A DNA stretch of 64,000 nucleotides from an uncultured Gammaproteobacteria bacterium (lineage in GTDB: Bacteria > Patescibacteriota > Microgenomatia > CAZETR01 > Amesbacteraceae): positions 920 to 64,919 of the forward strand of contig CAZWKN010000005.1 in NCBI GenBank assembly GCA_964633995.1, written 5' to 3'. The position numbers and the translations under genes are program-made. The notes beneath the pieces are model-generated. The model was not told the origin of the DNA. It worked only from the letters and a program-made list of their open reading frames with translations, and did no database searches. Every line of letters starts with the position of its first letter. Position 1 is the stretch's first letter. Of this stretch, positions 43,829 through 60,300 are shown in pieces.

Positions 43829-43869
43829 TCCCTCTCCATAATTGTGGAGAGGGGCAGGGGGTGAGGTGG
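43829..43869. repeat. Palindromic repeat element (CCCTCTCC-ATAATTGT-GGAGAGGGG plus GGGGGTGAGGTGG tail), intergenic copy upstream of miaA
   Basis: A 9-bp inverted repeat flanks an AT loop, followed by the G-rich tail. The same architecture recurs at least 12 times in the window. Confidence 0.85.
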
Positions 43870-43884
43870 TTGAGTTAAAATGAG

Positions 43885-44799
43885 ATGATGGTGTCCAAAG
43901 TTCTCATTATCAGTGGTCCTACTGCGACAGGAAAAACTAAATTTGGGTTAGAAATAGCCAAACAGTTCGACGGTGAAATTGTCTCCGCCGACTCTCGCCA
44001 GGTCTACATAGGTAAAAACATAATTCATGGCAAAGATCTCCCCGTCACTGTCAATTGTCAATCGTCAATTGTCAATTGGAGAGGGAGACGTTTAAAATAT
44101 TATGTAGTCGATGGTGTCAGGGTGTGGTTGTATGACGTAGTCAATCCCGGTGAAGACTTCAGTGTGGCTTTTTGGAAAGAATGCGCCGATTTGGTAATAG
44201 CAGATATTGTTTCGCGCAACAAATTGCCAATTATTGTCGGCGGTTCAGGTCTTTACATCAAATCACTTACCCAAAACCTGTCCCAGGTTTCAGTACCCCG
44301 CAACGAGAAACTAAGAGATCAGCTCCTAAATAAATCTGTCAAATACCTGTTTAATTATTTAAATCGTATCGATTCTTTCCGTGCCGCAGCCCTAAATCAT
44401 TCTGATAAAAACAACCCCCGTCGCCTTGTCAGGGCAATTGAATTATCGTTGTCAAAAGAAAAGTTACACCCCTCTCCTGAATTAAAGAGAGGCCTGTCTG
44501 CCGGCATGGCAGGGGTAGGGGGTGAGGTTTTGCAAATTGGTCTCATTGCCCCCCGCGATTATCTTTATCAGCTCGTAAATCACAGGGTCTCAGATCGCAT
44601 TGCAGCCGGCGCTGCCGCCGAGGACGCAAACTTAGCGAATTCACCAGTTCTTTGGCAAAATCAGGAACATGCCATTATTCGCCACCAACTCACCTGGTTC
44701 AAAAAACAACCCAACGTGACTTTTTTTGACGTTTCAGCTCCAAATTGGCAGGCAAACGCAACGACTTTTATCAAAAATTGGTATAATAACTCTACATGA
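43885..44799 (+). CDS. miaA: tRNA dimethylallyltransferase MiaA (carries in-frame repeat-derived insertions)
   Basis: P-loop ISGPTATGKT and SADSRQVY motifs. The ORF includes the heptamer tract at 44050-44078 and the palindromic element at 44468-44529. Confidence 0.85.
   Translation: MMVSKVLIISGPTATGKTKFGLEIAKQFDGEIVSADSRQVYIGKNIIHGKDLPVTVNCQSSIVNWRGRRLKYYVVDGVRVWLYDVVNPGEDFSVAFWKECADLVIADIVSRNKLPIIVGGSGLYIKSLTQNLSQVSVPRNEKLRDQLLNKSVKYLFNYLNRIDSFRAAALNHSDKNNPRRLVRAIELSLSKEKLHPSPELKRGLSAGMAGVGGEVLQIGLIAPRDYLYQLVNHRVSDRIAAGAAAEDANLANSPVLWQNQEHAIIRHQLTWFKKQPNVTFFDVSAPNWQANATTFIKNWYNNST
44050..44078. repeat. Tandem heptamer tract (TCAATTG x4, one variant) inside miaA
   Basis: tcaattg tcaatcg tcaattg tcaattg encodes ...VNCQSSIVN... 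in a region absent from typical MiaA. A similar tract lies in recJ at 56334-56378. Confidence 0.6.
44468..44529. repeat. Palindromic repeat element copy in frame within miaA (encodes ...HPSPELKRGLSAGMAGVGGEV...)
   Basis: CACCCCTCTCC-TGAATTAA-AGAGAGG plus a CTGCCGGCATGGCAGG palindrome module and a GGGGTAGGGGGTGAGG tail. The reading frame avoids the TGA and TAA in the loop. Confidence 0.85.
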
Positions 44800-45782
44800 A
44801 TTCAAAGATAGAAGTTTCCTACAAAACGGTTATTTTTTCGTTAGTTTTAATCCTATTGGCATGGGTAGTGTGGCACATTTCAGACATCATTCTCATGCTA
44901 TTTATTTCGGTCATCCTCATGTCAGCCCTAAGTCCGGCTGTCGACAAACTGGAAAAGCTAAAATGTCCCCGTTGGTTAGCCATCTTGCTGATTTATTCAC
45001 TTCTGTGGTCATTGGTGGGTGTAGTCATAGCAGGTCTTGTTCCATCCCTGGTGGACCAGACCGCAAAACTTATTGGTTTGCTTCCGGAAGCCATCGGCAA
45101 AATTGAGTTCCTAAATGACCATCAACTGGAAATTAGTCAGGAAATCCTCACCCAGATAGGCGGCTTACCTGGAAACATTCTTAAGTTTACGGTTTCACTC
45201 TTTAGCAATTTGATCAACGTCCTGACCACTATAGTGTTCAGTATTTATCTGTTGTTGGAACGCAAAAATCTAAACTTCCATATGGAAAACTACTTTACAG
45301 AACAGACTTCAACCCGTGTTATTAATTTAATCAAAGCCATTGAGCGCAGATTAGGCAGTTGGGTTAGGGGAGAATTGGTACTTATGCTCGCCGTTGGTGT
45401 CCTAAGTTATATAGGGCTACTGATTTTGGGAGTAGAAATAGCATTGCCTTTGGCTATCATCGCCGGTATTTTAGAGATCATCCCCAACATTGGCCCCATC
45501 CTTTCAGCCGTTCCAGCGGTTATCGTCGCTTTTTCAATTCACCCCATGCTAGCATTGGCCACGATCGCCTTATATTTCTTGGTTCAATTTTTAGAAAATC
45601 ATTTCTTAGTCCCCAAAATTATGGAAAAAGCAGTTGGAGTCAATCCGCTTGTAAGTATCGTTGCCCTCATGGTTGGTTTTAGATTTGCGGGTCCTCTTGG
45701 GGCAGTACTGGCAATTCCTATCATCATTGTTGCGCACTCAATTTTTTCTGAGTTCTCCCCAAAACGCTCCTTGGGGTTATAA
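44796..45782 (+). CDS. AI-2E family transporter (PerM/YhhT-like, UPF0118)
   Basis: 328 aa, about 8 TM helices, typical AI-2E N-terminal region and conserved ...LEIIPNIGP... segment. Confidence 0.75.
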   Translation: MNSKIEVSYKTVIFSLVLILLAWVVWHISDIILMLFISVILMSALSPAVDKLEKLKCPRWLAILLIYSLLWSLVGVVIAGLVPSLVDQTAKLIGLLPEAIGKIEFLNDHQLEISQEILTQIGGLPGNILKFTVSLFSNLINVLTTIVFSIYLLLERKNLNFHMENYFTEQTSTRVINLIKAIERRLGSWVRGELVLMLAVGVLSYIGLLILGVEIALPLAIIAGILEIIPNIGPILSAVPAVIVAFSIHPMLALATIALYFLVQFLENHFLVPKIMEKAVGVNPLVSIVALMVGFRFAGPLGAVLAIPIIIVAHSIFSEFSPKRSLGL

Positions 45783-45793
45783 GTTATAATTAC

Positions 45794-46096
45794 TCCACCT
45801 GGAGACCGTGCGTCTATGCCTCCACAGTCCGGCTTGCCGGATGAAGGGGTAAGGAAAGTCCGGACAGCAGAAGGCAGGGTACCCCGCCGATGAGGCGGGG
45901 ACGCGCAAGCGCTAGATAGTGCCACAGAGACAACGACTCATCCCGCCAATGGCGGGAAAGAGGGTGAAAAGAGGAAAACCTTACCCGCTGCAACCTCCGA
46001 AATGGGTGGGTAGCCTTCCCCAATACCCAAAAGCTTGAGGGCGCAAGATAGATTGACGCATTAAAACAGAATCCGGCTTACCAGTTTCCAGGTGTA
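45794..46096 (+). ncRNA. rnpB: RNase P RNA (bacterial type A), compact roughly 300 nt
   Basis: Conserved P4 strands GGAAAGTCCGGAC (5') and ACAGAATCCGGCTTA (3'). P1 pairing CACCTGGA/TCCAGGTG at the ends. Also ...GCCACAGAGACAA...CCCGCCAATGGCGGG...AGGGTGAAAAGAGG... and GCTTGAGGGCGCAAGATAGATTGAC. Confidence 0.9.
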
Positions 46097-46106
46097 TAAT
46101 ATCTAC

Positions 46107-46268
46107 ATGGATTTCACTGTGCTTTTAACTAACCGCACAGCCCTTCAGGGAGCAATCTCTGTAGTTTTTGGTTTTTTGGTTCTCATGTTTCCCAAATTGC
46201 TTAACTACTTAATTGCTTTTTACTTCATTATCTCTGGCCTATCCCTTCTCCTGCCCCACCTACGCTAA
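46107..46268 (+). CDS. Small membrane protein (53 aa), hypothetical; below the ORF-track size cutoff
   Basis: MDFTVLLTNRTALQGAISVVFGFLVLMFPKLLNYLIAFYFIISGLSLLLPHLR has two hydrophobic helices. Its stop abuts the next gene's ATG. Confidence 0.4.
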   Translation: MDFTVLLTNRTALQGAISVVFGFLVLMFPKLLNYLIAFYFIISGLSLLLPHLR

Positions 46269-46832
46269 ATGCCGTTCTTGCTGGATCCCAAAGGCATTAA
46301 CTTTCGTGATCGCCCCATTCTGTTCATCGACCTAGAAACCACCGGCCTGGATCGACATCATCACGAGATTGTAGAAATTGCCGCCTTACTGGTTTCCCAG
46401 CCAGATTTTACCGTTACCAACTCTTTTTATACTAAAGTTATTCCGACCCATATCGAAACTGCCGATCCAAAAGCTCTCAAAGTGATCAATTATTCACCAG
46501 ATGATTGGCAGGAGGCTATCCCCCTAAACCAGGCTATGGAAGAATTGTCCAACTTTGCTCCTGGTTGCATCTTGGCTGGCTGGTCAGTCCAAACCGAGTG
46601 GGATTTTTTATGCCAATCGTTAGAAGCATGCAAACTCCCGTATTTTTTTACCCACCGGCTATTAGAGGTCTATACTCTGGCTTTTGCCAAATTTTACAAC
46701 GATCAATCCATTTCGTTTCTCAATCTGCCAAATGTTTGCAAAGCTCTAAATATTCGGCTAGATCAGCACAAACCAGATTCGGATATCCGTGCCACCTACG
46801 AGATCTTCAAACGCCTTTTCCCGTCCCCATAA
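46269..46832 (+). CDS. DEDD-family 3'-5' exonuclease (DnaQ/oligoribonuclease-like)
   Basis: Exo I motif ILFIDLETTGLD, Exo II and III regions with H/Y and D. 187 aa. Confidence 0.75.
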   Translation: MPFLLDPKGINFRDRPILFIDLETTGLDRHHHEIVEIAALLVSQPDFTVTNSFYTKVIPTHIETADPKALKVINYSPDDWQEAIPLNQAMEELSNFAPGCILAGWSVQTEWDFLCQSLEACKLPYFFTHRLLEVYTLAFAKFYNDQSISFLNLPNVCKALNIRLDQHKPDSDIRATYEIFKRLFPSP

Positions 46833-47262
46833 TTTCTCTAATTTTTTCAACCACTTTCTCTGTATCACTATCCACCTCCGCATTCCATACTTCCAGCAAG
46901 TTAATTCCAAAAGATTCTAAATATCTTCTTCGATAACAATCATATTTTTTATTGCTCTCGATTTTATGTACACTTCCAAGCAATTCAACCCCAAATCTTT
47001 TTTCCGGGCAATAAAAATCTATCACATATCCATTCACGCTATATTGTCTTCTAAATTTCACACCCAATTTGCCATTTCTCAGACTTTCCCACAACAACTT
47101 CTCTGCCTTTGTTGATTTCTGTCGCAAATCCCTTCTCCGCGCCTTCAATTCTGTACGGTAATACACCCTTTTTCTGTCGTCCACATTTCTAATTTTACTC
47201 TCCCAAAACCCCCCCTCTCCATAATTATGGAGAGGGGGTTGGGGGGTGAGGTGGAAGACCAT
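46807..47262 (-). CDS. DUF559 (Vsr-like endonuclease-fold) domain protein, copy 1; N-terminus runs into the palindromic repeat
   Basis: ...LWESLRNGKLGVKFRRQYSVNGYVIDFYCPEKRFGVELLGSVH... matches the DUF559 core. The first roughly 20 codons (..PPLHNYGEGG..) are encoded by the repeat element at 47210-47240. Confidence 0.7.
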   Translation of the reverse strand: MVFHLTPQPPLHNYGEGGFWESKIRNVDDRKRVYYRTELKARRRDLRQKSTKAEKLLWESLRNGKLGVKFRRQYSVNGYVIDFYCPEKRFGVELLGSVHKIESNKKYDCYRRRYLESFGINLLEVWNAEVDSDTEKVVEKIREIMGTGKGV

Positions 47263-47338
47263 GCGTCACAGTTGGGGTTGGGGGGTGAGGTGGAAGACCA
47301 TATGTCACAGTTGGGTGATGGGGGTGGGGTTGAAAAGG
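47210..47338. repeat. Palindromic repeat element cluster with an internal tandem duplication (about 39-nt unit x2)
   Basis: CCCCCCTCTCC-ATAATTAT-GGAGAGGGGG, then GGTTGGGGGGTGAGGTGGAAGACCAT(G/A)(C/T)GTCACAGTTGG twice. The listed minus ORF 47225..47437 (PPHPPTP repeats) is derived from this repeat. Confidence 0.85.
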
Positions 47339-47354
47339 GTTTAGTAGCCTACCA

Positions 47355-47385
47355 CCAAAAAACCCCGCCATCGGCGGGGTTTTTG
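47355..47385. terminator. Bidirectional rho-independent terminator
   Basis: AAAAAACCCCGCC-ATCG-GCGGGGTTTTT. Lies 18 nt downstream of the minus-strand zinc-ribbon gene. Confidence 0.75.
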
Positions 47386-47402
47386 TGATCGAAAAGCAAG
47401 GC

Positions 47403-47546
47403 TTAGGCAGCACCGATCTTATACATACCGGTTCCACAAACTGGACATTTGCCCTTCATTGCGGCCTTACCATTTTTCATCGTTACTTTTTGGGCACTAG
47501 GATCTTCTCTTTTGGTTCTACATTTTACGCAAAACATTGAAGCCAT
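47403..47546 (-). CDS. Small zinc-ribbon protein (47 aa; two CxxC pairs)
   Basis: MASMFCVKCRTKREDPSAQKVTMKNGKAAMKGKCPVCGTGMYKIGAA. Strong SD GAGGAGGTGAGG 7 nt upstream of the ATG. A terminator follows. Preferred over the overlapping + ORF 47449..47727. Confidence 0.6.
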   Translation of the reverse strand: MASMFCVKCRTKREDPSAQKVTMKNGKAAMKGKCPVCGTGMYKIGAA

Positions 47547-47821
47547 GACTGCCTCACCTCCTCTCGATTCTCAAATTTGTAATAATGATTTAACACTTTG
47601 CCATCCTCCATGGTCTAGCCACCTGGCCAAAGCTAATTGTAAAAGCAAGGCAAGGATAGTCACGATCCCGGTTCTTGTCAAGTCGAAGACTATTTGCTTC
47701 ATCGGCAAATTTAGCTCGGGTGTATAAAAACTTCCCTTCATCACCCAACCATACCACACCTATTCAAGCACGGCAACGCAGCACTGGAAAACTCTGCCTT
47801 TTTAAGTTATCCTTAACAAAC

Positions 47822-49003
47822 ATGTTATTAAACAAGAAAACACTCGGCTATGTCTTAGGGGCTATTTCTATTTTTTCGCTTTCAGCCATTGTCTCCTTTA
47901 GTATTTTCAAATCTGTAAAAAGTTATCCGTCGCAAGTTGTTCCCGTTCCCACCCCAGCAAAATCAACTTCTAAAAAATCAAAAATAGACCCCAAGATTCC
48001 CAGGACCGAAGTTTGTCCTATCAATGGCTTGCTTTATACCAAGGGTGAAAAAGACATCTGGGTCACCAGAAGGCCCATCGCCGCCATGATAGAAAATCAT
48101 GAAGACTCTCGTCCCGCTTCGGGATTGAGTAGCGCGGATGTGGTTTATGAAGCCGTAGCGGAAGGCGGGATAACTCGTTTCATGGGCATCTTCTACTGCA
48201 ATATTTCAGAAAACACGACCCTGGCTCCTGTCAGGAGCGCCCGTATTTACTTCGTCAAACTTCTTTCGGAATACGATCCTCTGTATAACCATGTGGGCGG
48301 TGCCGGAAATTGCGATGATCCCACCGTCGATGATCGTGCCAAAGCGCTATGTTTTCTAAGGAGAAACAATATCAAAGACATGGATCAATTTGGTCGTGCT
48401 GGGGATTTTAAGACCTGTCATCGGTTAACCAATCGACTGGACCAGGACGTCGCCTATGAGCACACCATGGGCTGTTGGACAGACGAGCTGTACAAGGCCG
48501 CCGCCAAAAACGATTGGACAAATGTCGACGAAAAAGGGGTCCCTTGGGACAAAAATTTCAAACCCTGGAAATTCAAAGATGATTCCAAGCAAGCTGGGAT
48601 TGTTAATCGCATAGCCTTCGATTTTTGGAAATCCAAGCAACTTTACTCTGTAGTTTGGAACTACGACTCAGGAAGTAACTCGTATCTTAGAGAAAATGGT
48701 GGTCAAAAGGCGATTGATTTAAACACCGATGAACAACTCGCCGCCAAAAACGTTGTCATCCAATTTGTCCCAGAGACAGGGCCATTGGATGAACATCTTC
48801 ACATGTATTATGAGATAACCGGGACCGGCAAGGCTCTAATCTTTCAAGATGGGGGAGTAATTGCAGGAACATGGTCCAAACTATCTCTCTCATCCAGAAC
48901 CAGATTTTATGACGCCAAAGGCGTGGAAATAGCGCTAAATAAAGGCCAAACATGGGTCGAGCTTCTTCCCAAAGGCAACGCCGTAGACTATCCTCAACCA
49001 TAA
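47822..49003 (+). CDS. DUF3048-like (YerB-type) secreted or lipoprotein-like protein
   Basis: N-terminal TM or signal, then ...VTRRPIAAMIENHEDSRPASGLSSADVVYEAVAEGGITRFMGIFY... resembling the DUF3048 core. Start set at MLLNKK (47822) rather than 47675. Confidence 0.55.
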   Translation: MLLNKKTLGYVLGAISIFSLSAIVSFSIFKSVKSYPSQVVPVPTPAKSTSKKSKIDPKIPRTEVCPINGLLYTKGEKDIWVTRRPIAAMIENHEDSRPASGLSSADVVYEAVAEGGITRFMGIFYCNISENTTLAPVRSARIYFVKLLSEYDPLYNHVGGAGNCDDPTVDDRAKALCFLRRNNIKDMDQFGRAGDFKTCHRLTNRLDQDVAYEHTMGCWTDELYKAAAKNDWTNVDEKGVPWDKNFKPWKFKDDSKQAGIVNRIAFDFWKSKQLYSVVWNYDSGSNSYLRENGGQKAIDLNTDEQLAAKNVVIQFVPETGPLDEHLHMYYEITGTGKALIFQDGGVIAGTWSKLSLSSRTRFYDAKGVEIALNKGQTWVELLPKGNAVDYPQP

Positions 49004-49071
49004 CTGCTCACACATTGTCCTCAATCCTCTTGATTTTCTCAACACTTCTGGTATCTTCAACTTAACAAACT

Positions 49072-49650
49072 ATGCTAAAAGATCTATTCATCTCCAAGGC
49101 CCGGGTTCACATTCTCGAAACATTTCTTTCTGATCCCACTCAAATGTTTCATGTGCGTGATTTAGTCAGAAGAACAGGGGAAGAAATAAATGCTATTCGT
49201 CGTGAATTGTTGCGCATGGAAGAAGCTGGTATGGTCAAGAAAGAACCTCGTGGTAACAGGCTTTATTACTGGTTTCGGAAAGATTACGTTTACTATTCGG
49301 ATCTATTAAGTTTAGTTGCCAAAAACGTCGGTCTTGGTGCAGACCTCATTAAAAACAAATCTAAATTGGGTAGGGTTTCATTCATCATGCTTTCAGGTCG
49401 CTTCGTCCGCCATCAGCCCAAAAAAACTCCCGACGAAGTAGAGTTATTAGTTGTTGGTGATATCGTTCTTCCTGAATTGGCCAGTATTGTTAGGGCCGAA
49501 GAGACCAAACGGGGTCAGGCAATTAATTACACACCCATGACCGACGACGAATTAAAGTTTAGAAGAAGCCGCAGAGACCCGTTTCTTCTTGGCATTTTGA
49601 CCGGAGGTCGGGTTATAATTCTAGGGTCCGAAGAAGACCTGGTGGGTTAA
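49072..49650 (+). CDS. Winged-helix transcriptional regulator-like protein with an uncharacterized C-terminal domain
   Basis: N-terminal wHTH-like segment (ARVHILETFLSDP...VRDLVRRTGEEINAIRRELLRMEEAGMV). 192 aa. Confidence 0.4.
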   Translation: MLKDLFISKARVHILETFLSDPTQMFHVRDLVRRTGEEINAIRRELLRMEEAGMVKKEPRGNRLYYWFRKDYVYYSDLLSLVAKNVGLGADLIKNKSKLGRVSFIMLSGRFVRHQPKKTPDEVELLVVGDIVLPELASIVRAEETKRGQAINYTPMTDDELKFRRSRRDPFLLGILTGGRVIILGSEEDLVG

Positions 49651-49833
49651 ATGCAACATAAAATACTAAAAACAGGCCACAGTCTTTGTGTGACAATTCC
49701 TGCAAATTTCGCCCAGGTTTTGGGTCTAAAGCCCGGACAGCCTGTCAAAGCCGAAGTTAACATGCTAGACCAAACTCTTACATACAAATTTACCAGCGTA
49801 GGCCAGCTTACCCTACTGCCGTCTTCAAAATAA
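49651..49833 (+). CDS. AbrB/MazE/SpoVT-family swapped-hairpin DNA-binding protein
   Basis: KTGHSLCVTIPANFAQVLGLKPGQPVKAEV matches the SpoVT/AbrB fold motif. 60 aa. No toxin gene follows. Confidence 0.55.
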   Translation: MQHKILKTGHSLCVTIPANFAQVLGLKPGQPVKAEVNMLDQTLTYKFTSVGQLTLLPSSK

Positions 49834-49834
49834 T

Positions 49835-51124: not shown

Positions 51125-52014
51125 TGGGTATTCCATTCATGAAATACAAATGGGCTTACTTTGCCATTTCTTTATTGGTGCTTATTCCAGGATCAATTTC
51201 TTTGGTCGTCTTCGGTCTTCGCCTTTCGGTCGATTTTACCGGAGGAAGTCTTTTGGAAATTCAATCCAAATCTGCCATTTCCCAGCAGGTATTCAAAGAC
51301 ACTGCAAGCAAGTCGCATCTGGAACTTTCCTCCGTAGTTACCTCAAGCGATCTTGTATATTTACTTCGTTTCAAGCCGCTTACTCAGGCTCAAAACGACA
51401 CTTTCAAATTAGAGTTGGAAAAAGCAGCTGGAAAAATAACCGAACGGCGGTTTGAAACGGTTGGCCCGGCTATTGGTTCCGAATTAACCAAAAAAGCTAT
51501 CTTGTCAATTGTTGTGGCCTCGCTGTTTATTATTCTTTACATCTCCTGGGCTTTTAGGACAATTCCCAAACCGTATACTTCGTGGAAATTTGGTGTGTCA
51601 GCGGTCGTTGCCCTTATACACGACGCCCTGGTTGTCTTGGGTATATTTTCCATTTTTGGTCATTATTATAAAGTCGAAGTCGATTCCTTGTTTATTACCG
51701 CCCTCTTAACAGTTATCGGTTTTTCGGTTCATGACACCATAGTTGTTTTTGACAGGATCAGAGAAAATATGCCCAAACTTCCCAAAGCATCATTCTCGGA
51801 CGTAGTCGATTTCTCTCTTACTGAAACCCTTGGTAGATCGTTAAACACTTCGCTTACCGTGGTGCTTACACTTACTTCCCTGCTTCTTTTTGGAGGAGAA
51901 ACAACTCGCTGGTTTGTAACCGCTCTTCTTGTTGGAGTTGTGTCAGGCACCTTCAGTAGTATCTTCAACGCCGCCCCACTGCTTGTCTTGTGGGAAGAAA
52001 AAGGTAAAAAATAG
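51121..52014 (+). CDS. secF: Protein translocase subunit SecF
   Basis: SecF topology and conserved ...SVDFTGGS... region. Overlaps secD by 4 nt. Confidence 0.88.
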   Translation: MMGIPFMKYKWAYFAISLLVLIPGSISLVVFGLRLSVDFTGGSLLEIQSKSAISQQVFKDTASKSHLELSSVVTSSDLVYLLRFKPLTQAQNDTFKLELEKAAGKITERRFETVGPAIGSELTKKAILSIVVASLFIILYISWAFRTIPKPYTSWKFGVSAVVALIHDALVVLGIFSIFGHYYKVEVDSLFITALLTVIGFSVHDTIVVFDRIRENMPKLPKASFSDVVDFSLTETLGRSLNTSLTVVLTLTSLLLFGGETTRWFVTALLVGVVSGTFSSIFNAAPLLVLWEEKGKK

Positions 52015-52028
52015 TCTAGAATGACTTT

Positions 52029-52388
52029 GTGAACCTCAGATATAACAGAGTTTCTCTTAAACCACGTCGCAGACAATTAAGAAAAAATTCAACTCATTGT
52101 GAACAGTTGTTATGGGGAGAAATTAGAAACAGGAAGCTCAAATATAAATTTATTAGGCAGTATAGCGTAGATGGTTATGTAATGGATTTTTATTCACCGG
52201 AAGCAAGATTGGGAATCGAGATCGAAGGGGAGATTCATAAATTTACAAAGAAATACGATAAATATCGAGAAAAATATATAAGTGCGTTTTGGATAAAGAT
52301 TTTAAAATTTAAGAACGATGATATCCAAAACAATATTACCTTTGTCGTGGAAACAATAAAACGAAACCTTGACTCCCCCTCTATTTAA
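52029..52388 (+). CDS. DUF559 (Vsr-like endonuclease-fold) domain protein, copy 2; C-terminus and stop are supplied by the repeat loop
   Basis: ...LLWGEIRNRKLKYKFIRQYSVDGYVMDFYSPEARLGIEIEGEIH... The last codons ..SPSI plus TAA lie inside the palindromic element at 52375. Confidence 0.7.
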   Translation: MNLRYNRVSLKPRRRQLRKNSTHCEQLLWGEIRNRKLKYKFIRQYSVDGYVMDFYSPEARLGIEIEGEIHKFTKKYDKYREKYISAFWIKILKFKNDDIQNNITFVVETIKRNLDSPSI

Positions 52389-52487
52389 CTAAAGAGAGGG
52401 GGGCTGGGGGGTGAGTTAAACACAAACAAATCAAGTTTTCTCCCCCTCTATTTAACTAAAGAGAGGGGGGCTGGGGGGTGAGTTACA
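52375..52487. repeat. Two tandem copies (about 66-nt spacing) of the palindromic element, variant loop TATTTAACTAAAG
   Basis: CCCCCTCTA-TTTAACTAA-AGAGAGGGGGG CTGGGGGGTGAG occurs twice. Confidence 0.85.
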
Positions 52488-53685: not shown

Positions 53686-55049
53686 AACGATTCTAGCACA
53701 CCGATCAAAACTTCTCTTTCATTGGCTATCCCATTATTTACCACCTCGTCAAACAATTGTTGCAGATATTTACCCACTTCTGGGCCGGGGCCTATTTTCT
53801 TAATCTCCATCACATCTTTTCCGCTTACTTTCAAGTCAGGTATGGCAAAAGGTTGTACCTGTACTTCTTCAATTCGCCTCTTGTATTCTTCCAGTCTCCA
53901 GCTCGTTTCCCTAGCTCCACCTCCCAATCGGTCGCCGGTTCTAAGAGCCAGCATGTCAGAGATATTATCTTTACCCACGTTGACAATAAATCTTCTAATT
54001 GCCGAATCAGTCTGCCGCTCATCTACGCTAAACTGGTGCCACCTCACCAATCTGACAAACTTATCTTTTTGGTCGTTTGAAAACCTTAATCTCCCGGCAA
54101 TGTCCTCTGCAATTCTGGCCGATTCCATCTCGTGGTTATAAAAAGTTATCCTGCCGTCAGGATATTTACGGCATGTTTTCACCTTACCTACATCGTGAAT
54201 CAGTGTTGCTAGACGGGTAATTGGATCTGTGCTGGTACACGTTCTTAGTGATTCCACGCAATGTGTCCCTACGTCATAAATATGATGTCTTCCGGGGCTT
54301 TTTTGTTCGACTCCAAATGTTTTTTCCATTTCAGGCAAAATAATTTGAGCCAACCCGGTGTTGCGGAGCAATTTATATCCGTCTGCAGGAAACTCACACG
54401 CCATAATTTTAAGCAGTTCGTCTCGGATTCTTTCAAAAGAAACTTGGCCAATTTTTTCAGAATTAGTTTTAATGGCTTCAAATGTACCTTCTTCAATAGC
54501 AAATCCCAGTTGAGCCCCAATTCTAACCGCCCTCATCATCCGCAGGGCGTCTTCAGAAAATCGGTCGTTTGGGTTCCCCACTGTCCTAATCATTCTATTT
54601 TCCAGATCATTTTTCCCATCAAACAAATCAACCAGTTCAAACTCCTTAGCACTTTGCCCTTCACCCTTCGCACTTTTTTTGAGTGCCATCGCGTTGATCG
54701 TAAAATCTCTTCGGGCCAAATCTTCGGCCAAGTCGTTTCCCCATTTCACTTCATCGGGATGTCTGCCGTCCGAATACCCATGCTCAGTACGAAATGTAGT
54801 AATTTCCAGTGGCTTACCGTCGGTTTTTACTCCCACAGTCCCAAATTTGTTGTCATAAAATCCGTTTTCGCCCACCAGTTCCAATATTTCCTCCGGCTTG
54901 GCGTTAGTTGTAAAATCCCAGTCACCCAATTCCCGTTTCAAAAAAATATCCCTGACCACTCCGCCTACTACGTATATTTCAAAACCGTTTTTTTTAAAAA
55001 GATGCAGGATATGTTGAACTTGGTCTGGTACGTCAATTTTCAATAACAT
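53682..55049 (-). CDS. cca: CCA-adding tRNA nucleotidyltransferase / poly(A) polymerase family protein with HD domain
   Basis: Pol-beta NTase head (IYVVGGVVRDIFL...GDWDFTT) and an HD domain (LIHDVGK). Confidence 0.8.
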   Translation of the reverse strand: MLLKIDVPDQVQHILHLFKKNGFEIYVVGGVVRDIFLKRELGDWDFTTNAKPEEILELVGENGFYDNKFGTVGVKTDGKPLEITTFRTEHGYSDGRHPDEVKWGNDLAEDLARRDFTINAMALKKSAKGEGQSAKEFELVDLFDGKNDLENRMIRTVGNPNDRFSEDALRMMRAVRIGAQLGFAIEEGTFEAIKTNSEKIGQVSFERIRDELLKIMACEFPADGYKLLRNTGLAQIILPEMEKTFGVEQKSPGRHHIYDVGTHCVESLRTCTSTDPITRLATLIHDVGKVKTCRKYPDGRITFYNHEMESARIAEDIAGRLRFSNDQKDKFVRLVRWHQFSVDERQTDSAIRRFIVNVGKDNISDMLALRTGDRLGGGARETSWRLEEYKRRIEEVQVQPFAIPDLKVSGKDVMEIKKIGPGPEVGKYLQQLFDEVVNNGIANEREVLIGVLESL

Positions 55050-55066
55050 GCTGTTAAAATCATATC

Positions 55067-56683
55067 ATGACTCTCGACTCTATCATCCAACTTCTTCTCA
55101 AAAATCGCGGTCTGACGACCAAAAAAGCTATCGCGGATTTTTTTTCACCTCCCCATCCCAACGATATCATCTCACCCTTTGACTCCAAACCTGCTATCGA
55201 CTTAATTCATAGTCACATAGCTCAAAATAACCCCATTGCCGTTTATGGCGACTACGACGTCGATGGTATCTGTTCAACAGCAATTTTGTGGGAGACGTTG
55301 CATGCAGAATATCCGCATGTTTTTCCCCACATTCCTCACCGAAGGCTTGAAGGTTACGGCTTGTCTATTGCCGGGATCGATCATTGTCTTGCCCAGGGTG
55401 CCAAACTAATTATTGCTGTAGACAACGGTATTACTGCCGTGGATCAGGTTAAGTATTGTCGTGACCATGGATGTGACATTTTAATCATCGACCACCACGA
55501 AAAAGGTTCAACGCTTCCGGATACGCAATATGTACTACACGCTACGGATTGTTGTGCCGCCGGCCTGACCTGGTTTTTCTGCCGAGACTACATTAAAAAA
55601 TTCCCCTCTCCTGAATTAAGGAGAGGGGGCAGGGGTGAGGTTTTAGAACTAGTCTCTCTCGCCACCATATGTGACATGGTTCCTCTAATTGGCACCAACC
55701 GTTCTTTTGCCAAATTTGGATTAGAGCAATTAAACCACACCACCCGCCCCGGCCTCCTTGCCTTATTTCAAAAAGCCTCTCTAACCCCTAACACCCAACC
55801 CCTAACCACCTATCATATCGGTTTTCTCATCGGTCCTCGTCTCAATGCCATGGGTAGATTGGAGCACGCTATCGACAGTCTCCGTCTGCTTTGTACCAAA
55901 GATCCGATCAAGGCAGATTCAATCGCCACTTTACTAAACGACACCAACAAGCTTCGCCAGGATCTTACTGAGTCAGCCGTAAAAAACGCAACAAATTCAC
56001 TATCCCCTAGCTCCCTATCCCCAGTAATAGTTGTCTCCAGCTCGGATTACGACGAAGGGGTTATCGGGTTAATCGCTTCCAAGTTAGTTGAAAAATTTCA
56101 TCATCCGGCAATCGCTATTAGTGTAGGGGAGACCGTGTCCAAAGGTTCAGCCAGATCTATTCCCGGTTTTGATATTACAGCTCATTTGCGCCAGTTTTCC
56201 GGTTTGTTGGTAAGCATAGGTGGTCACACCATGGCCGCTGGTTTCACCATCGAAACCTCAAGGATCCAGGATCTAGTATCTAGCATCTCCCATCCAGATA
56301 TCCCCAAGGAGTTGTTGCAAAAAACCCAACGTGTCGATTGCGAAATTCCATTGTCGATTGTCAATTCTCAATTATCAACTGCACTCAAATCTTTCGAGCC
56401 ATTTGGCCTTGGCAACCCCACTCCGGTTTTTCAATCACAAGCCGAAATTTCATCGATCAAAACCATGGGCAGTATGGGACAACATGCCAGGTTAACTCTA
56501 AAGGATTGTCCATTCGATGCCGTCTGGTTCAACGCCACATTCCCCTCTCCTGAAATGAGGAGAGGGGGTAGGGGTGAGGTTGTGGGAGAAGTTTGGAACA
56601 TAATTTATACTCTCTCCGAAAACACCTACAACGGCCAAACCAAACTCCAGCTACTCATCAAATCCGTTACCCCCTCTCCATGA
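55067..56683 (+). CDS. recJ: Single-stranded-DNA-specific exonuclease RecJ (DHH/DHHA1), carrying two in-frame palindromic-element insertions
   Basis: DHH motifs (VYGDYDVDGICS; ILIIDHHE) and a DHHA1 region (GGHTMAAG). The stop TGA lies in the loop of the repeat copy at 56670. Confidence 0.85.
   Translation: MTLDSIIQLLLKNRGLTTKKAIADFFSPPHPNDIISPFDSKPAIDLIHSHIAQNNPIAVYGDYDVDGICSTAILWETLHAEYPHVFPHIPHRRLEGYGLSIAGIDHCLAQGAKLIIAVDNGITAVDQVKYCRDHGCDILIIDHHEKGSTLPDTQYVLHATDCCAAGLTWFFCRDYIKKFPSPELRRGGRGEVLELVSLATICDMVPLIGTNRSFAKFGLEQLNHTTRPGLLALFQKASLTPNTQPLTTYHIGFLIGPRLNAMGRLEHAIDSLRLLCTKDPIKADSIATLLNDTNKLRQDLTESAVKNATNSLSPSSLSPVIVVSSSDYDEGVIGLIASKLVEKFHHPAIAISVGETVSKGSARSIPGFDITAHLRQFSGLLVSIGGHTMAAGFTIETSRIQDLVSSISHPDIPKELLQKTQRVDCEIPLSIVNSQLSTALKSFEPFGLGNPTPVFQSQAEISSIKTMGSMGQHARLTLKDCPFDAVWFNATFPSPEMRRGGRGEVVGEVWNIIYTLSENTYNGQTKLQLLIKSVTPSP
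55601..55641. repeat. Palindromic element copy in frame within recJ (encodes FPSPELRRGGRGEV)
   Basis: TCCCCTCTCC-TGAATTAA-GGAGAGGGGG CAGGGGTGAGG. Confidence 0.85.
56334..56378. repeat. Degenerate tandem heptamer tract (TCGATTG/TCAATTN) inside recJ
   Basis: tcgattg cgaaattccat tgtcgattg tcaattc tcaatta tcaa encodes ...DCEIPLSIVNSQLST... The heptamer family matches the miaA tract. Confidence 0.5.
56541..56581. repeat. Second palindromic element copy in frame within recJ (encodes FPSPEMRRGGRGEV)
   Basis: TCCCCTCTCC-TGAAATGA-GGAGAGGGGG TAGGGGTGAGG. Confidence 0.85.
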
Positions 56684-56995
56684 TTATGGAGAGGGGGGGC
56701 CTGCCCGCCGGCAGGCGGGGGTGAGGTGGAATATTATGTCATCGCTAAACCCGCCCTGGCGGGTGTGGCGATCTTGGGTAGAGATTGCTTCTCTTCGTTC
56801 GCAATGACATAAAACTGTTCGTGCACCCCCCTCTTAAATTAAGAGGGGGGAAGGGGGGTGATATCTCTCTTATGGTGTCATCGCGAACCCGCCCCGGCAA
56901 TCCCATATTGTCATCGCGAACCCGCCTTGGCGGATGTGGAGATCTACATCTCCCTCTCCTGAAATGAGGAGAGGGAATAAGGGAGAGGTCATAAT
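56668..56995. repeat. Dense composite repeat cluster: three palindromic-element variants plus three copies of a second repeat (TGTCATCGCGAACCCGCC-YTGG-CGGRTGTGG) and an inverted partial copy
   Basis: Element variants at 56670-56730 (loop ATGATTAT plus a GCCTGCCCGCCGGCAGGCGGG module), 56826-56865 (CTCTTAAATTAAGAG) and 56948-56992 (CTCTCCTGAAATGAGGAGAG). TGTCATCGC... copies at 56737, 56876 and 56908, with an inverted GCAATGACA copy at 56801. Confidence 0.8.
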
Positions 56996-56998
56996 AAG

Positions 56999-57184
56999 CT
57001 AAGTTCTAGCTGTTCTTGCTCTTTGTGCGACCTTTTTATCTTCTTCAGCTCTTCTCCTTTGCGCTTCAGTGGGTCTGAATTGTGGCACTAGCCCCAAAAC
57101 CGCATTCATAATCATATCTCTCATGGGCAACCCCGCTTCGTGAGCGCAACCAAATTTTGCAGGTTTTGCTTCTGTTGCTGCCAT
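56999..57184 (-). CDS. Small hypothetical protein (61 aa) with basic C-terminus
   Basis: Canonical SD AAGGAGGTGA 7 nt upstream of the ATG (minus strand). Confidence 0.5.
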   Translation of the reverse strand: MAATEAKPAKFGCAHEAGLPMRDMIMNAVLGLVPQFRPTEAQRRRAEEDKKVAQRARTART

Positions 57185-57205
57185 ATTTTTTCACCTCCTT
57201 CAACT

Positions 57206-57228
57206 AAAAAACCCCGCTTTTTGCGGGG
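57206..57228 (-). terminator. Intrinsic terminator-like hairpin (CCCCGC-AAAAA-GCGGGG plus TTTTTT on the minus strand) 9 nt upstream of the small gene's SD; possible attenuator
   Basis: GC hairpin and U-tract read on the minus strand, placed between the upstream leader and the RBS of 56999..57184. Confidence 0.5.
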
Positions 57229-57362
57229 TATTTGTAAAAAATAAATAACGTTTCTTACATTCCCCCGCGGATTGCCCAGTTAAGGACAATACGAAGCCCG
57301 CCCTTAATAATGGCGTGCTGGGAAAATGTATGCATCAAAGACATGTGAAACATTTTAATATC

Positions 57363-57391
57363 TTGACTTAAGTTTAGTCAAGAACGATAAT
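57363..57391 (+). promoter_or_regulatory. Sigma-70-like promoter (TTGACT-N17-GATAAT) directed toward aspS; -35 embedded in a palindrome TTGAC-N10-GTCAA
   Basis: Near-consensus -35 and -10 hexamers with 17-nt spacing, about 190 nt upstream of the aspS ATG. Confidence 0.5.
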
Positions 57392-57537
57392 ACCCTCAAA
57401 GCGTTATTAGTCTGCCGACACCAGACGAGCTTCCCGAAAAAACCGGGACGGACCCATCCGTAAAAGTGGAAATCAAGACCCCTGATGTGGATGGCACCTT
57501 GGATCCGCACCATTAAAGGGTCTTTTTTGTTTTTATT

Positions 57538-57580
57538 TCCCCTCTTAGATTAAGAGGGGAACCCGAAGGAGGGGTGATAT
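57538..57580. repeat. Palindromic element variant (CCCCTCTTAGATTAAGAGGGG plus GGAGGGGTGA) overlapping the aspS ribosome-binding site
   Basis: The tail AAGGAGGGG ends 9-11 nt before the aspS ATG. Confidence 0.75.
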
Positions 57581-57583
57581 TTT

Positions 57584-58900
57584 ATGAACCGTACTTTAAT
57601 TAATCAAACCATCTCAAAAATTGGAGAAACAGTCCTTCTTAAAGGCTGGGTAAACAGTAGGCGGGATCATGGCAAGATCGTTTTTATAGACTTGCGTGAC
57701 AGGACGGGTCTAATGCAGATAGTTTTATCGCCGGAATTAGCCGCCGATCTTCATGTTGAGGATGTTGTCCAAATATCTGGATTAGTCAAAGCCCGGCCTG
57801 AAAAACTAGTTAATCCAAAGCTGGTTTCAGGTACGGTAGAGCTGGAAGCCAAAGAGGTTGTCGTGCTTAGTAAATCAGCCGAATTGCCTTTCGACCTGGG
57901 TCAGGAAACATTGGACCTACAGCTTCCTACCCTTTTGGATTATCGGGCGCTTACTCTCAGGCATCCCAAAGTTCAGGCGATTTTCAAAGTTCAGGAGGTA
58001 GTCATTGATAGCTTTAGAAAAGCGCTACAAGCGAGGGATTTTAGAGAGTTCCAAGCACCAAACATCATTTCCTCGATTCCCGAGGGGGGGGCCGAAGTTT
58101 TTGAGGTCAAATACTTTGACCACAAAGCTTATTTGTCCCAGAGCCCTCAGTTATATAAATCATTGTTAGTAGGGGATTTTGAAAGAGTCTTTAGCGTCAA
58201 CAAAGTTTTTAGGGCCGAACCCAGTGTCACGACCCGTCACCTAACCGAAGTAGTAAGTTTGGACGCAGAATTTGGCTTTTTGGAGTCCTGGTTAGATGTT
58301 TTGGAGATGGAGGAATACGTAGTCAGATTTATCTTTTCAGAAGTAGAAAAAAAGTGTCAGGCTGAGTTGGCATTATTCCAGGCTACCTTGCCCAAATTGG
58401 CAGATAAAATACCGTTGGTGAAACTCAGGGATGCCCAAGAAATAATTCTTCAAAGAACCGGGCGAGATTCCCGACACGAAAAAGATCTTTCACCGGAAGA
58501 CGAACGCGAAATCTGTAGATGGTCACTCGAAGAACATGGGTCTGATCTGGTCTACGTTTCACATTTCTTAACTGCCAAAAAACCTTTTTACATCCAACCA
58601 GATCCGGAAAATCCAGAGTTTGTTTTAAGCGTAGATTTGTTGGGACGAGGGGTAGAATGGTCCAGTGGGGGCCAAAGGCTCAATGATTATGACCACATAC
58701 GAAAAAACATCAAAGAGTGGGGATTAAAAGAGGAAGATGTGGCCATGTATCTTCAAGCATTTAAATATGGCGTGCCTCCTTTGGGGGGTTTTGCCTTGGG
58801 AGCGGAAAGAGTGACCATGCACATTTTGGGTCTACAAAACATTCGTGAAGCCTCTTTGTTTCCCCGCGATATGGAAAGAGTAGACTTCCGACTTTCATGA
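57584..58900 (+). CDS. aspS: Aspartyl-tRNA synthetase, short (archaeal/eukaryal-like, likely non-discriminating) type
   Basis: N-terminal OB anticodon-binding domain and class II motifs (FRAE..; GLDRLVM-like GAERVTMHILG). 438 aa with no GAD insertion domain. Confidence 0.88.
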   Translation: MNRTLINQTISKIGETVLLKGWVNSRRDHGKIVFIDLRDRTGLMQIVLSPELAADLHVEDVVQISGLVKARPEKLVNPKLVSGTVELEAKEVVVLSKSAELPFDLGQETLDLQLPTLLDYRALTLRHPKVQAIFKVQEVVIDSFRKALQARDFREFQAPNIISSIPEGGAEVFEVKYFDHKAYLSQSPQLYKSLLVGDFERVFSVNKVFRAEPSVTTRHLTEVVSLDAEFGFLESWLDVLEMEEYVVRFIFSEVEKKCQAELALFQATLPKLADKIPLVKLRDAQEIILQRTGRDSRHEKDLSPEDEREICRWSLEEHGSDLVYVSHFLTAKKPFYIQPDPENPEFVLSVDLLGRGVEWSSGGQRLNDYDHIRKNIKEWGLKEEDVAMYLQAFKYGVPPLGGFALGAERVTMHILGLQNIREASLFPRDMERVDFRLS

Positions 58901-59805
58901 CCAAGAAATTTCTTATCCGCAAATTCAAGCTGCTATTTCATAAATCCAAAAAAAAAGATTTTTCTCACCTGGCGGTCTTTTTATTGACGGTTTTAATCGG
59001 TCTAAATCTTTCATCACCATCAAAAATCCCGGTTACTAGGCAGTCGGTTTTAGGGCAATCATCAAAATTTCTCAAAGCCTCGCCACCCGTCGTTTCCGCT
59101 AAAAGCGTTTTTATTCTCGATATAACTTCTGGGGAAGTGGTCTATCAAAAACAAGCAGATTCCGAGGTCTACCCGGCATCCACCACCAAAATGATGACAG
59201 CTGTAATTGCCAAAGAAACTTTCGACCCGAATCAAGTCCTCACCATTTCCCGTCTATATAATCTTGGGAGTCAGGATCTCAAATTGCCGGTAGGCGGGAA
59301 AATTACTATAGAAAAATTGCTGTACGCTCTCCTGGTTTCTTCTTCAAACGATGCGGCCGAAATACTTGCCGAAAATTACCCCGGAGGAAGAACCGCTTTC
59401 GTTGAGGCCATGAATCGCAAGGCTTCGGAACTGTTACTTCACCACACTCATTTTGAAAATCCTACCGGCTTGGACCAAATAAACCATTATTCATCCGCAG
59501 CCGATTTAGCCAGGTTGGCCAAACATCTGATTTCAGTTCCGGAATTAGCCAGGATCGTTGGGACTCAAACCGCCGTCCTTTCCACCGTCGACTTTTCCGG
59601 GGTCTACACGGTCACAAATGTAAACCAGCTGTTGGGTAAAGTGCCTGGCGTTATGGGGGTAAAGACTGGTTTTACAGATTTAGCAGGCCAGGTCTTAGTG
59701 ACTTACGTCAATCGCGAGAACAGACCTCTAATCATTAGTGTCCTGGGCAGTTTAGACCGTTTTTCTGATACCGAATCCCTCATCACCTGGGCCTATTCGC
59801 AATAA
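58897..59805 (+). CDS. D-alanyl-D-alanine carboxypeptidase (S11 family, PBP5-like)
   Basis: SxxK ASTTKMM, SxN SSSND and KTG KTGFT motifs. N-terminal TM or signal. Confidence 0.8.
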   Translation: MTKKFLIRKFKLLFHKSKKKDFSHLAVFLLTVLIGLNLSSPSKIPVTRQSVLGQSSKFLKASPPVVSAKSVFILDITSGEVVYQKQADSEVYPASTTKMMTAVIAKETFDPNQVLTISRLYNLGSQDLKLPVGGKITIEKLLYALLVSSSNDAAEILAENYPGGRTAFVEAMNRKASELLLHHTHFENPTGLDQINHYSSAADLARLAKHLISVPELARIVGTQTAVLSTVDFSGVYTVTNVNQLLGKVPGVMGVKTGFTDLAGQVLVTYVNRENRPLIISVLGSLDRFSDTESLITWAYSQ

Positions 59806-60130
59806 CAACTTCTCCACAACCTTGTCCATATCCCTTTCAACTTCATTATTCCAAAATTCCAGTACAACTATGCCAAACGCCTCTAAATATTTTTTTCTGT
59901 AACCATCATATCGATCCCCAATCTTTTTTCCGGACAATAAAAATCCATTACATACCCATTCACGCTGTACTGTCTTCTAAATTTTACCCATAATTGATTG
60001 TTTCGCAATTTTTCCCAAAGCAATTTCTCTGCATTCGTCGATTTTTGTCGTTAATCTCTTCTTCTGGCCTTGAGTTCAGTACGATAATATACTCTTTTTC
60101 TATCGTCCATGCCATAATTTTACTCTTCTT
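59752..60130 (-). pseudogene. DUF559 gene copy 3, disrupted (frameshifted); only a 61-aa C-terminal ORF remains
   Basis: Nucleotide sequence 59905-60125 is near-identical to 46925-47205 (DUF559 copy 1) but with a broken frame. The remnant ORF ...KKYLEAFGIVVLEFWNNEVERDMDKVVEKL matches the copy-1 C-terminus. It is followed by the same palindromic element. Confidence 0.7.
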
Positions 60131-60133
60131 ATT

Positions 60134-60300
60134 TCTCCCCTCTCCACAATTGTGGAGAGGGGCAGGCCTGCCTGCCGGCAGGCAGGGGGTGAGGTGGTAC
60201 GCGTGTCGCGGAATTATTGTGAAGTTATGGTTACAGCGTGTGGGCAGGGGGTGAGGTGGTACACACGTCGCGGAACTATTGTGAAGTTATGGTTACAGCA
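60134..60300. repeat. Palindromic element (loop ACAATTGT plus GCCTGCCTGCCGGCAGGCAGG module) followed by a diverged tandem duplication (about 62-nt period x2)
   Basis: CCCTCTCC-ACAATTGT-GGAGAGGGG, then GGCAGGGGGTGAGGTGGTAC..CGTCGCGGAA.TATTGTGAAGTTATGGTTACAGC repeated at 60181 and 60243. Confidence 0.85.

Follow-up and report, generated by a model that had tools for sequence, protein, structure and literature searches.

Intrastrand triplex motifs rich in G/C in a Microgenomates genome and their association with DUF559 genes

A stretch of 64,000 nucleotides from contig CAZWKN010000005.1 of assembly GCA_964633995.1 (positions 920 to 64,919 of the forward strand), referred to here as the window, derives from a Microgenomates bacterium of the candidate phyla radiation (CPR) and carries 12 short palindromic elements between 43.8 and 60.2 kb. 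The best homologues of its RecJ, MiaA and DUF559 proteins bear names that place the host near Amesbacteria, and the contig as a whole measures 66.7 kb. The elements were securely identified as intrastrand triplex motifs of the G/C-rich kind and belong to a family that has already been described, under the names BoxC, PIT and triplex motif, rather than to an unrecognised one. The association of such motifs with genes for DUF559 proteins is a strong statistical fact, and three DUF559 loci, missed by the initial annotation of the window, stand among the 12 elements and provide the strongest lead to the spread of the family. On balance, the observations lean towards a selfish partnership of nuclease and repeat.

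The element was named BoxC in the 1990s, then PIT (potential intrastrand triplex), and then TM (triplex motif) or TM_ECO (Holder et al. 2015, NAR; PMC4666352). In Escherichia coli it is exclusively intergenic and accompanied by elevated local rearrangement, with counts of 23 for MG1655 and 3610 for a set of 262 proteobacterial genomes, and abundant G/C-rich triplex motifs were also reported from cyanobacteria (PMC4666352). Circular dichroism and nuclear magnetic resonance, applied to the E. coli sequence only, showed that the isolated TM_ECO strand adopts a purine-motif triplex in vitro (PMC4666352).

Structure and family identity of the repeats

The elements were located with a generic triplex-motif detector, which requires an 8-nt C/T arm with at least five C, a loop of 3-10 nt, a reverse-complement arm with at most one mismatch and, after a spacer of 1-32 nt, a mirror third strand that deviates at most once from the purine-motif rule (G over G; A or T over A). 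Exactly 12 sites were returned on the + strand, at 43829, 44471, 47212, 52375, 52442, 55603, 56542, 56671, 56826, 56951, 57537 and 60137, together with a single match on the - strand, at 47198, that uses the 47212 hairpin. These 13 matches on both strands compare with 0.02 on average, and never more than 1, in 100 dinucleotide shuffles. The simpler expression CCCYCTCY-N4-12-RGAGRGGG retrieved 10 distinct hairpins in the same 43.8-60.2 kb, and the degenerate copies at 44469 and 57538 were seen by eye.

Each unit, 37-63 nt long in the window, consists of a pyrimidine arm CCCCTCTCC, a short AT loop, a purine arm GGAGAGGGG and a purine third strand GGGGTGAGG. Side-by-side comparison of the copies clarified the nature of their common 3' tail GGGGGTGAGGTGG (nine matches with at most two mismatches, on the + strand only, versus 1.17 expected), which is a mirror repeat of the purine arm, GGAGAGGGG being followed by GGGGTGAGG. 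The spacer between the two measures 2-5 nt, or about 22-26 nt where a GC hairpin is nested; this second hairpin, GGCCTGCC-N-GGCAGGC, occurs between purine arm and tail in three copies (44471, 56671 and 60137). Folding of the copies as single-stranded DNA gave stems of 10-12 bp and loops of 3-6 nt (z -2.6 to -5.2), the copy in miaA being weaker (z -1.3), and only in this weak miaA fold did the third strand take part in pairing. The loops of 6-9 nt in the window copies are partly paired, part of the apparent AT loop extending the stem beyond 9 bp. The CPR variant has mostly GG tracts between long G runs. Two other accounts of the tail were dropped: pairing with the pyrimidine arm, which a check by hand showed to be impossible in mirror orientation, and a Shine-Dalgarno decoy, the third strand being at a ribosome-binding-site position in copy 11 alone.

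Hairpin stems of at least 8 nt and mirror third strands, each with no more than one mismatch, are present in all 12 copies, and the set is multi-copy and over-represented (13 versus 0.02). The core 8-mers CCCTCTCC, GGAGAGGG and GGGTGAGG are identical between window copies and the E. coli motif. The mirror logic extends to related loci, in which hairpins were picked without requiring a third strand: of the strand-instances of asymmetric C/T hairpins, 38.4% are followed on the 3' side, at a distance of at most 12 nt, by a perfect mirror third strand, while the control with a direct repeat gives 3.6% and that with a permuted arm 4.8%. The exact 24-nt pattern CCCTCTCC-N6-8-GGAGAGGG-N1-30-GGGTGAGG was found in at least 120 genome stretches, where about 0.4 would be expected by chance in the genome collection (an estimate for uniform base composition). 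The hosts listed comprise Ignavibacteria, Chloroflexi, Cyanobacteria, Alpha-, Beta-, Gamma- and Deltaproteobacteria, Planctomycetes, Acidobacteria, Bacteroidota, Verrucomicrobia, Gemmatimonadetes and CPR, and the related Enterobacteriaceae element has matches in 5426 of 5426 complete E. coli genomes, at a median of 13 places each.

The strict TM_ECO pattern, CCCTCNCCC-N3-6-GGGNGAGGG-N3-GGGNGAGGG, is not matched by the window copies, whose form CCCCTCTCC-N6-9-GGAGAGGGG-N2-5 (or about 22-26)-GGGGTGAGG differs in the ninth stem position and in loop lengths. Nor are they found only between genes, as strict TM_ECO copies are, since some lie in miaA, in recJ and over stop codons. Rfam scans, at the gathering threshold and at permissive settings, yielded RNase P and chance-level matches only and no family for the elements. 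Part of the contig was recovered independently in a sequencing run (Logan SRR8893623).

The generic detector found no triplex motif on either strand in the 1-43 kb part of the window. That part is 95% coding and holds about 2.0 kb of non-coding DNA, versus 2.8 kb in 43-64 kb, and simple arithmetic on the non-coding space puts the chance of all nine intergenic copies falling in the second part at about 0.008. Because about 2.0 kb of non-coding DNA is available there, lack of space only partly explains the copy-free part. The motif cluster coincides with the three DUF559 loci, which are likewise absent from 1-43 kb. Three copies are fully intragenic (one in miaA, two in recJ) and two overlap stop codons (those of recJ and DUF559-B). 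The initial annotation had correctly described at least 12 copies in about 17 kb, both intergenic and intragenic, and none in 1-43 kb, while its appeal to scarce intergenic space accounts for only part of that absence. Its 9-bp inverted repeat around an AT loop corresponds to a hairpin whose stem is longer and whose loop is partly paired, and its shared 3' tail is present as a mirror-repeat third strand, by which the family is defined, instead of an appendix.

Association of the motifs with DUF559 genes

DUF559 proteins were trimmed to their motif-free core, and 80 metagenome loci, those most similar to the CPR query, were fetched by the core alone. A motif lies within 100 nt of the DUF559 domain in 71 of the 80 loci, an enrichment of about 100-fold, and motif density amounts to 11.5/kb in the 100 nt upstream and 6.5/kb in the 100 nt downstream, versus 0.03-0.08/kb beyond 300 nt. 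The gene is flanked on both sides in 41 loci and on one side only in 30. The commonest layout among the doubly flanked loci (22 of 41) is an inverted pair with the third strands inward, and an identical 8-mer stem is present in both flanks in 13 of the 41, versus 6.5% for pairs from different loci. Named genomes with a motif-flanked DUF559 gene include Brasilonema, Ignavibacteriaceae, Nitrospiraceae and a metagenome-assembled genome of Beijerinckiaceae (L029). Additionally, homologues of the window protein DUF559-A often end in translated motifs, for instance HLTPGPSPQLWRGGRR, ISPLLTKERGRGEV and SPLTKGESEGVL.

The association holds from the gene side only. A DUF559 gene was present within the 8-kb stretch in 1 of the 120 listed exact-motif loci, and the proposition that every motif sits by a nuclease was rejected. 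This asymmetry, with many repeats and few genes, is of the kind seen for repetitive extragenic palindromic (REP) sequences and their RAYT transposases. Carriage by phages was rejected as well, 2.9 million viral contigs containing eight DUF559 loci, of which three are motif-flanked. In the literature searched, no link of DUF559 or ycjD to BoxC or triplex motifs was found, no work on the intrastrand triplex from 2016 onwards connects it with DUF559, and the main text of PMC4666352 does not mention such a link; a prior description elsewhere is possible.

All three DUF559 loci of the window, as identified with Pfam, lie in the motif-rich zone and each adjoins a motif (copies are numbered 1 to 12 by position). 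DUF559-A (46807..47262, - strand) is a 151-aa open reading frame (ORF) with the Pfam domain at residues 39-144, and its first 18 codons are the reverse complement of copy 3. DUF559-B (52029..52388, + strand) encodes 119 aa and has two motifs at its 3' end, the stop codon lying inside copy 4. DUF559-C (59752..60115, - strand) is a pseudogene that is interrupted by an internal stop and a frameshift and has lost 40 nt by deletion; a motif stands at its 5' end. On the 5' side of cassette A there are about 2.5 tandem units of 39 nt (47235..47332, + strand), each opening with the third-strand sequence GGGGGGTGAGGTGG, and on the 5' side of cassette C two tandem units of 62 nt (60181..60299, + strand), each opening with GGCAGGGGGTGAGGTGG, a repeated third strand. 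Cassettes A and C are about 74-76% identical in DNA over an alignment that starts in the third-strand tandem repeats, takes in hairpin and gene and ends at the stop codon; since this homology spans repeats, hairpin and gene, motif and gene were duplicated as one unit.

The window proteins match Pfam DUF559 (PF04480) with E 1e-25 to 1e-28, above the gathering score, and the YcjD model (NCBIfam NF007294) with E 1e-17 to 1e-20, below the equivalog cutoff, and a match to PDB 3HRL was obtained with E 8e-14. Proteins of the DUF559/YcjD type have about 120 aa and a Vsr-like PD-(D/E)xK fold resembling that of the homing endonuclease I-Bth0305I. Copies A and C, together with the homologues P0001-P0015, carry E-L-L-G-S-V-H where most members carry E-x-D-G-x-x-H. 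No Y1 or other transposase family was detected by Pfam among the 19 ORFs of 43-64 kb. A defence system was considered and discarded, as PADLOC gave two weak matches (E about 5e-5 to 8e-5) that concern one DUF559 copy only.

E. coli offers a check of the association, as ycjD (b1289) of K-12 is a DUF559 gene with TM_ECO no. 9 (Holder Table 1) 168 nt downstream, and the C-terminus of YcjD (...SPSP*) lies inside a hairpin. The ycjD segment was found in 3375 of 5426 E. coli genomes, and the remaining genomes have eefRABCD between fabI and sapF instead (PMC12817139). The one eef allele that was read ceases to be homologous about 40 nt short of the motif, and its junction is without a motif. Counting the other motif places in a spread sample of 60 E. 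coli chromosomes gave a median of 16 for those with ycjD (10-23, n = 37) and of 3 for those without (1-15, n = 23; Mann-Whitney p = 2e-9, uncorrected for phylogeny), B2 strains having 1-3 motif places.

Two polymorphic E. coli sites, tauD-hemB and hrpB-mrcB, allowed filled and empty alleles to be compared for target-site duplication, a comparison confined to E. coli because the CPR relatives are too divergent. At both sites the motif stands in place of 10-39 nt of the other allele and no target-site duplication is seen; such replacement makes classical transposition unlikely, and it was rejected on this ground. In the alleles read (L221, L223, L224 and L226 at tauD-hemB; L222 and L225 at hrpB-mrcB) the whole short intergenic segment is swapped, with no clean insertion, and L224 has 51 nt extra beside the motif. 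In K-12, a partial duplicate of the ycjD 3' end lies by the motif in the interval from TM_ECO no. 9 to ycjD (L122, 3740-3905), TTCAG..GAATATTCTCCAGCACCGTCTCC occurring twice, which suggests a remnant of a second DUF559 copy.

Motif positions, related genomes and coding sequences

The 12 copies, all on the + strand, occupy the following places. Copy 1 (43829..43869) is intergenic, 16 nt upstream of the miaA start, and reads TCCCTCTCC-ATAATTGT-GGAGAGGGG-CAG-GGGGTGAGGTGG. Copy 2 (44469..44530) lies in frame in miaA, where it is translated as HPSPELKRGLSAGMAGVGGEV, and has a degenerate stem and a nested hairpin before the third strand. Copy 3 (47211..47254), at the 5' end of DUF559-A, is bilateral, with a weak third strand on the other side too. 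Copy 4 (52375..52414) overlaps the DUF559-B stop codon, and copy 5 (52442..52481) is its 67-nt tandem duplicate with 98% identity. Two copies are in frame in recJ: copy 6 (55603..55641) encodes FPSPELRRGGRGEV at about residue 178, and copy 7 (56542..56582) encodes FPSPEMRRGGRGEV at about residue 494, in the OB domain. Copy 8 (56670..56729) overlaps the recJ stop codon, has a nested hairpin and is the first of four in the place of relA/spoT; it is followed by the intergenic copies 9 (56826..56860; CCCCCCTCTTAAATTAAGAGGGGGG-AA-GGGGGGTG) and 10 (56951..56987; third strand AAGGGAGAG) and by copy 11 (57537..57576), the least certain of all, which lies just upstream of aspS with its third strand GGAGGGGTG at the ribosome-binding-site position. 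Copy 12 (60137..60197), at the 5' end of the DUF559-C pseudogene, again has a nested second hairpin.

Comparison with the relatives L203, L204 and L205, which share the gene order of the window and whose RecJ is 58-63% identical to that of the window, revealed the variation in presence and absence that the initial annotation had proposed to look for. DUF559 is missing at all three junctions in L203-L205. The dacB|hyp junction measures 5 bp in L203, holds a 60-bp solo motif in L204 and extends to 508 bp with the pseudogene and motifs in the window. Between recJ and aspS, relA/spoT is present in L203 (11577-13055), L204 (11554-13023) and L205 (8846-10315) and absent from the window gap (56684-57583), which is filled by four triplex motifs and a second repeat family, with no remnant of the gene under the motif nest. 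Two RecJ motifs of the window, that at residue 178 and that over the stop codon, are shared by L205. All seven motifs of the relatives lie on the + strand, which makes 19 of 19 across the four syntenic genomes. The + strand is the strand of most genes, yet its GC skew is negative throughout the window.

The second repeat family occupies 56737-56945, with TGTCATCGC(G/T)AA(A)CCCGCC..GGCGG.TGTGG(C/A)GATC at 56737, 56876 and 56909 on the + strand and an inverted partner, GAGATTGCTTCTCTTCGTTCGCAATGACA, at about 56781-56810. Peptides such as CHPERSRGIPPLASLGRDDK occur in the triplex-motif loop of the RecJ orthologues P0132, P0135, P0137 and P0152. Similar terminator-like hairpins, AAAAACCCCGC..GCGGGGTTTTT, lie downstream of motif clusters at 47348-47386 and 57197-57235 and are 79% identical. 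About 300 nt upstream of aspS (57240-57530) are non-coding and without an Rfam match, the relatives having short unannotated ORFs only in this place. The bacterial RNase P RNA of class A (RF00010, 113 bits, E 9e-34) is encoded at 45798-46096 on the + strand.

The in-frame copies recur among orthologues. Many of 120 RecJ orthologues carry motif-type peptides in the same two loops (query residues about 178 and about 494), for instance PSPELRRG.GGEV, PSPSLELREGLGV and FPDSGEGLEVR, and other orthologues carry unrelated short sequences there. One MiaA loop likewise contains motif-type peptides in some orthologues and not in others. At this MiaA site, which AIEISLS and LQIGLTAPR enclose, a composite motif of 63 nt is present in the window, CCCCTCTCCTAGATTAGGAGAGGGGCGGGGGGTGAGGT in L218 and CCCCCTCTCTTGAATCAAGAGAGGGGCTAGGGGTGAGT in L219, and an Amesbacteria genome (L220) lacks a motif; the alignments of RecJ and MiaA and the DNA of L218 and L219 versus L220 thus display in-frame insertion with presence and absence among orthologues, as in Rickettsia palindromic elements (RPEs). 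The MiaA-site motifs of the window, L218 and L219 are in three different reading frames, and the genomes that share the MiaA and RecJ loop motifs are only about 60% identical in protein. Different reading frames at the same loops indicate persistence or recurrence of the DNA element rather than of the peptide. In triplex-free RecJ and MiaA orthologues, the same loops hold a third kind of sequence (EHLTLNIEH, EHRTPNTEH, ERYTLDA and STTYNPQSTTFNF; L220, 301-1170), which may be another short repeat family tolerated in frame.

Proposed mechanism, alternatives and known systems

In the selfish partnership towards which we lean, the triplex motif would be a cis-acting DNA element recognised by the DUF559 nuclease. 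Motifs bracket the gene, usually as an inverted pair, and motif and gene duplicate as a cassette. Cassettes would enter variable gaps between conserved genes via break-and-repair replacement instead of classical transposition. Of the motifs, the majority would be scars or non-autonomous solo copies, which would survive at any place that tolerates them, surface loops of MiaA and RecJ with in-frame copies among these. This mechanism is favoured because of the inverted flanks, the co-duplication and the presence/absence series at syntenic junctions, and also because of the homing-endonuclease-like fold, the lack of a target-site duplication and the smaller number of motifs in chromosomes without ycjD. 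From these features we infer that the nuclease acts on the motif and that solo motifs are derivatives of the cassettes. A wider proposal, which we regard as conceivable and hold more tentatively, is that BoxC-type motifs in general are the non-autonomous partners of an unrecognised pan-bacterial selfish element, whose sole gene would encode a DUF559/YcjD Vsr-fold endonuclease. This enzyme would recognise the repeat in its hairpin or triplex-forming state, the cassettes would spread by break-induced replacement, and solo motifs would be derived from them. The signs bearing on homing, namely the fold similarity to I-Bth0305I and the replacement-type presence/absence alleles, are both indirect.

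Several points weigh against the partnership. The arrival of solo copies at new sites, the retention of identical 8-mers in different phyla and the strand bias are left unaccounted for. Judged by its E-L-L-G in place of E-x-D-G, which may be a change at an acidic active-site position, the CPR DUF559 subgroup may not be an active nuclease. A few lineages may be over-represented among the 80 metagenome loci, and a relaxed search from the motif side found a DUF559 gene or fragment within 400 nt in 2 of 120 listed solo-motif loci, versus 0 in a four-times-larger control, so that most motif copies are independent of a neighbouring gene. In E. coli, the correlation with ycjD is confounded by phylogroup, O157:H7 keeps about 12 motifs without ycjD at fabI-sapF, and the replacement alleles at tauD-hemB and hrpB-mrcB lack a target-site duplication. 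Published work on TM_ECO detected no triplex signal in duplex DNA or in vivo, neither promoter nor terminator activity, and no association with mobile elements (PMC4666352).

The motifs could instead be targets and not cargo, kept for host reasons, with DUF559 homing-type genes inserting beside existing motifs in the way that insertion sequence (IS) elements target REPs; the association would then say nothing on motif spread. The solo motif of L204 exactly at the dacB|hyp place of the window DUF559-C fits this idea, as do the fold like that of I-Bth0305I, the solo state of most motifs and the one-sided arrangement of 30 of the 80 DUF559 loci. Yet cassettes A and C share the motif region within the duplicated unit, stems common to both flanks are five times more frequent than across loci, the E. 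coli allele without ycjD has no junction motif, and chromosomes without ycjD are far poorer in motifs; we judge it unlikely. Somewhat less likely still is that the motifs are immobile host elements that serve replication, transcription or mRNA stability as a hairpin, triplex or G-quadruplex switch, and that DUF559 is a structure-specific repair nuclease encoded beside its substrate. This would suit the same 8-mers across phyla, the retention at DNA level in MiaA and RecJ loops in three frames and in genomes about 60% identical in protein, the 19 of 19 copies on the + strand, the Vsr-like fold, and the proposal of Kaplan et al. 2016 that the same E. coli motif is a G-quadruplex-hairpin-duplex switch (PMC5100583). 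Against it stand the published tests without promoter, terminator or in vivo structure signal and a copy number that ranges from 1 to 29 among E. coli strains and is zero in Salmonella (PMC4666352). DUF559, moreover, behaves like a selfish gene, since it occurs in several copies, is partly pseudogenised and is missing from the corresponding sites of relatives, and a motif nest replaces relA/spoT in the window.

The initial annotation had compared the density and loop variation of the elements with REPs, miniature inverted-repeat transposable elements (MITEs) and RPEs. They are indeed dispersed, structured, multi-copy repeats, with in-frame copies like those of RPEs, whereas membership of the REP or MITE class fails. 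A REP/REPIN family moved by a RAYT (Y1) transposase, or a MITE moved by an IS transposase elsewhere in the genome, would likewise be short, palindromic, dispersed and strand-biased, but is very improbable: neither a RAYT nor any other transposase is found among the 19 ORFs of 43-64 kb, no Rfam family matches, the two filled-versus-empty E. coli sites show replacement without target-site duplication, and the gene flanked by motifs across phyla is DUF559. Chance, low complexity or an assembly artefact can practically be dismissed, given the 13 matches versus 0.02 in shuffles, the part of the contig in SRR8893623, and the homologous copies in relatives and in thousands of genomes.

The repeat on its own is an ordinary finding, a known family in a new host; the partner gene, whose link was not found in the literature searched, may matter. 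About 30 years of work on BoxC/PIT/TM have yielded neither a function nor a way of spreading, and motif and DUF559 duplicate together and come and go together between related genomes, E. coli ycjD included. The question thereby becomes testable, as binding or cutting of the motif by YcjD/DUF559, with a candidate function for a very common domain. If true, the wider proposal would account for where a repeat family open since the 1990s came from, for its sequence conservation from phylum to phylum and for its 'genomic instability', as well as for the motif peptides in loops of CPR proteins. The in-frame copies also call for caution in the annotation and the protein-family alignments of CPR genomes.

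Among known systems, BoxC/PIT/TM_ECO resembles the window elements in the three-block design, the core 8-mers, the multi-copy dispersal with frequent inverted pairs, and the local rearrangement, here seen as replacement alleles and gene loss next to copies. The differences concern the host (CPR, versus the 262 proteobacterial genomes reported), the register and loops, to which a nested hairpin of about 20 nt may be added ahead of the third strand, the in-frame translation of three copies where E. coli copies are always intergenic, and the single orientation of all window copies.

REP/REPIN-RAYT systems share with the triplex motifs a short palindromic repeat that is mostly solo, a one-gene partner flanked by repeats, and strand bias. 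Their partner is a Y1 (HUH) transposase, in contrast to the Vsr-fold PD-(D/E)xK nuclease of about 120 aa here, and REPs are species-specific, whereas the triplex motif has a mirror third strand and is conserved in sequence across phyla. RPEs are also palindromic repeats that lie in frame in genes, essential ones included, are translated as surface peptides and vary in presence among orthologues. They measure about 100-150 bp and are restricted to Rickettsia, whereas the present units are 37-63 nt, triplex-type, pan-bacterial and DUF559-linked, as far as a comparison by description rather than by sequence can tell.

On the side of the gene, DUF559 differs from the homing endonuclease I-Bth0305I (PDB 3R3P) and from the mismatch endonuclease Vsr (PDB 1CW0) in that no intron or intein context was seen, and flanking by structured repeats is not a described feature of either. 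YcjD of E. coli differs from CPR copies A and C in having E-x-D-G instead of E-L-L-G, and the window DUF559 genes, like ycjD, stand beside triplex motifs in a strain-variable gap.

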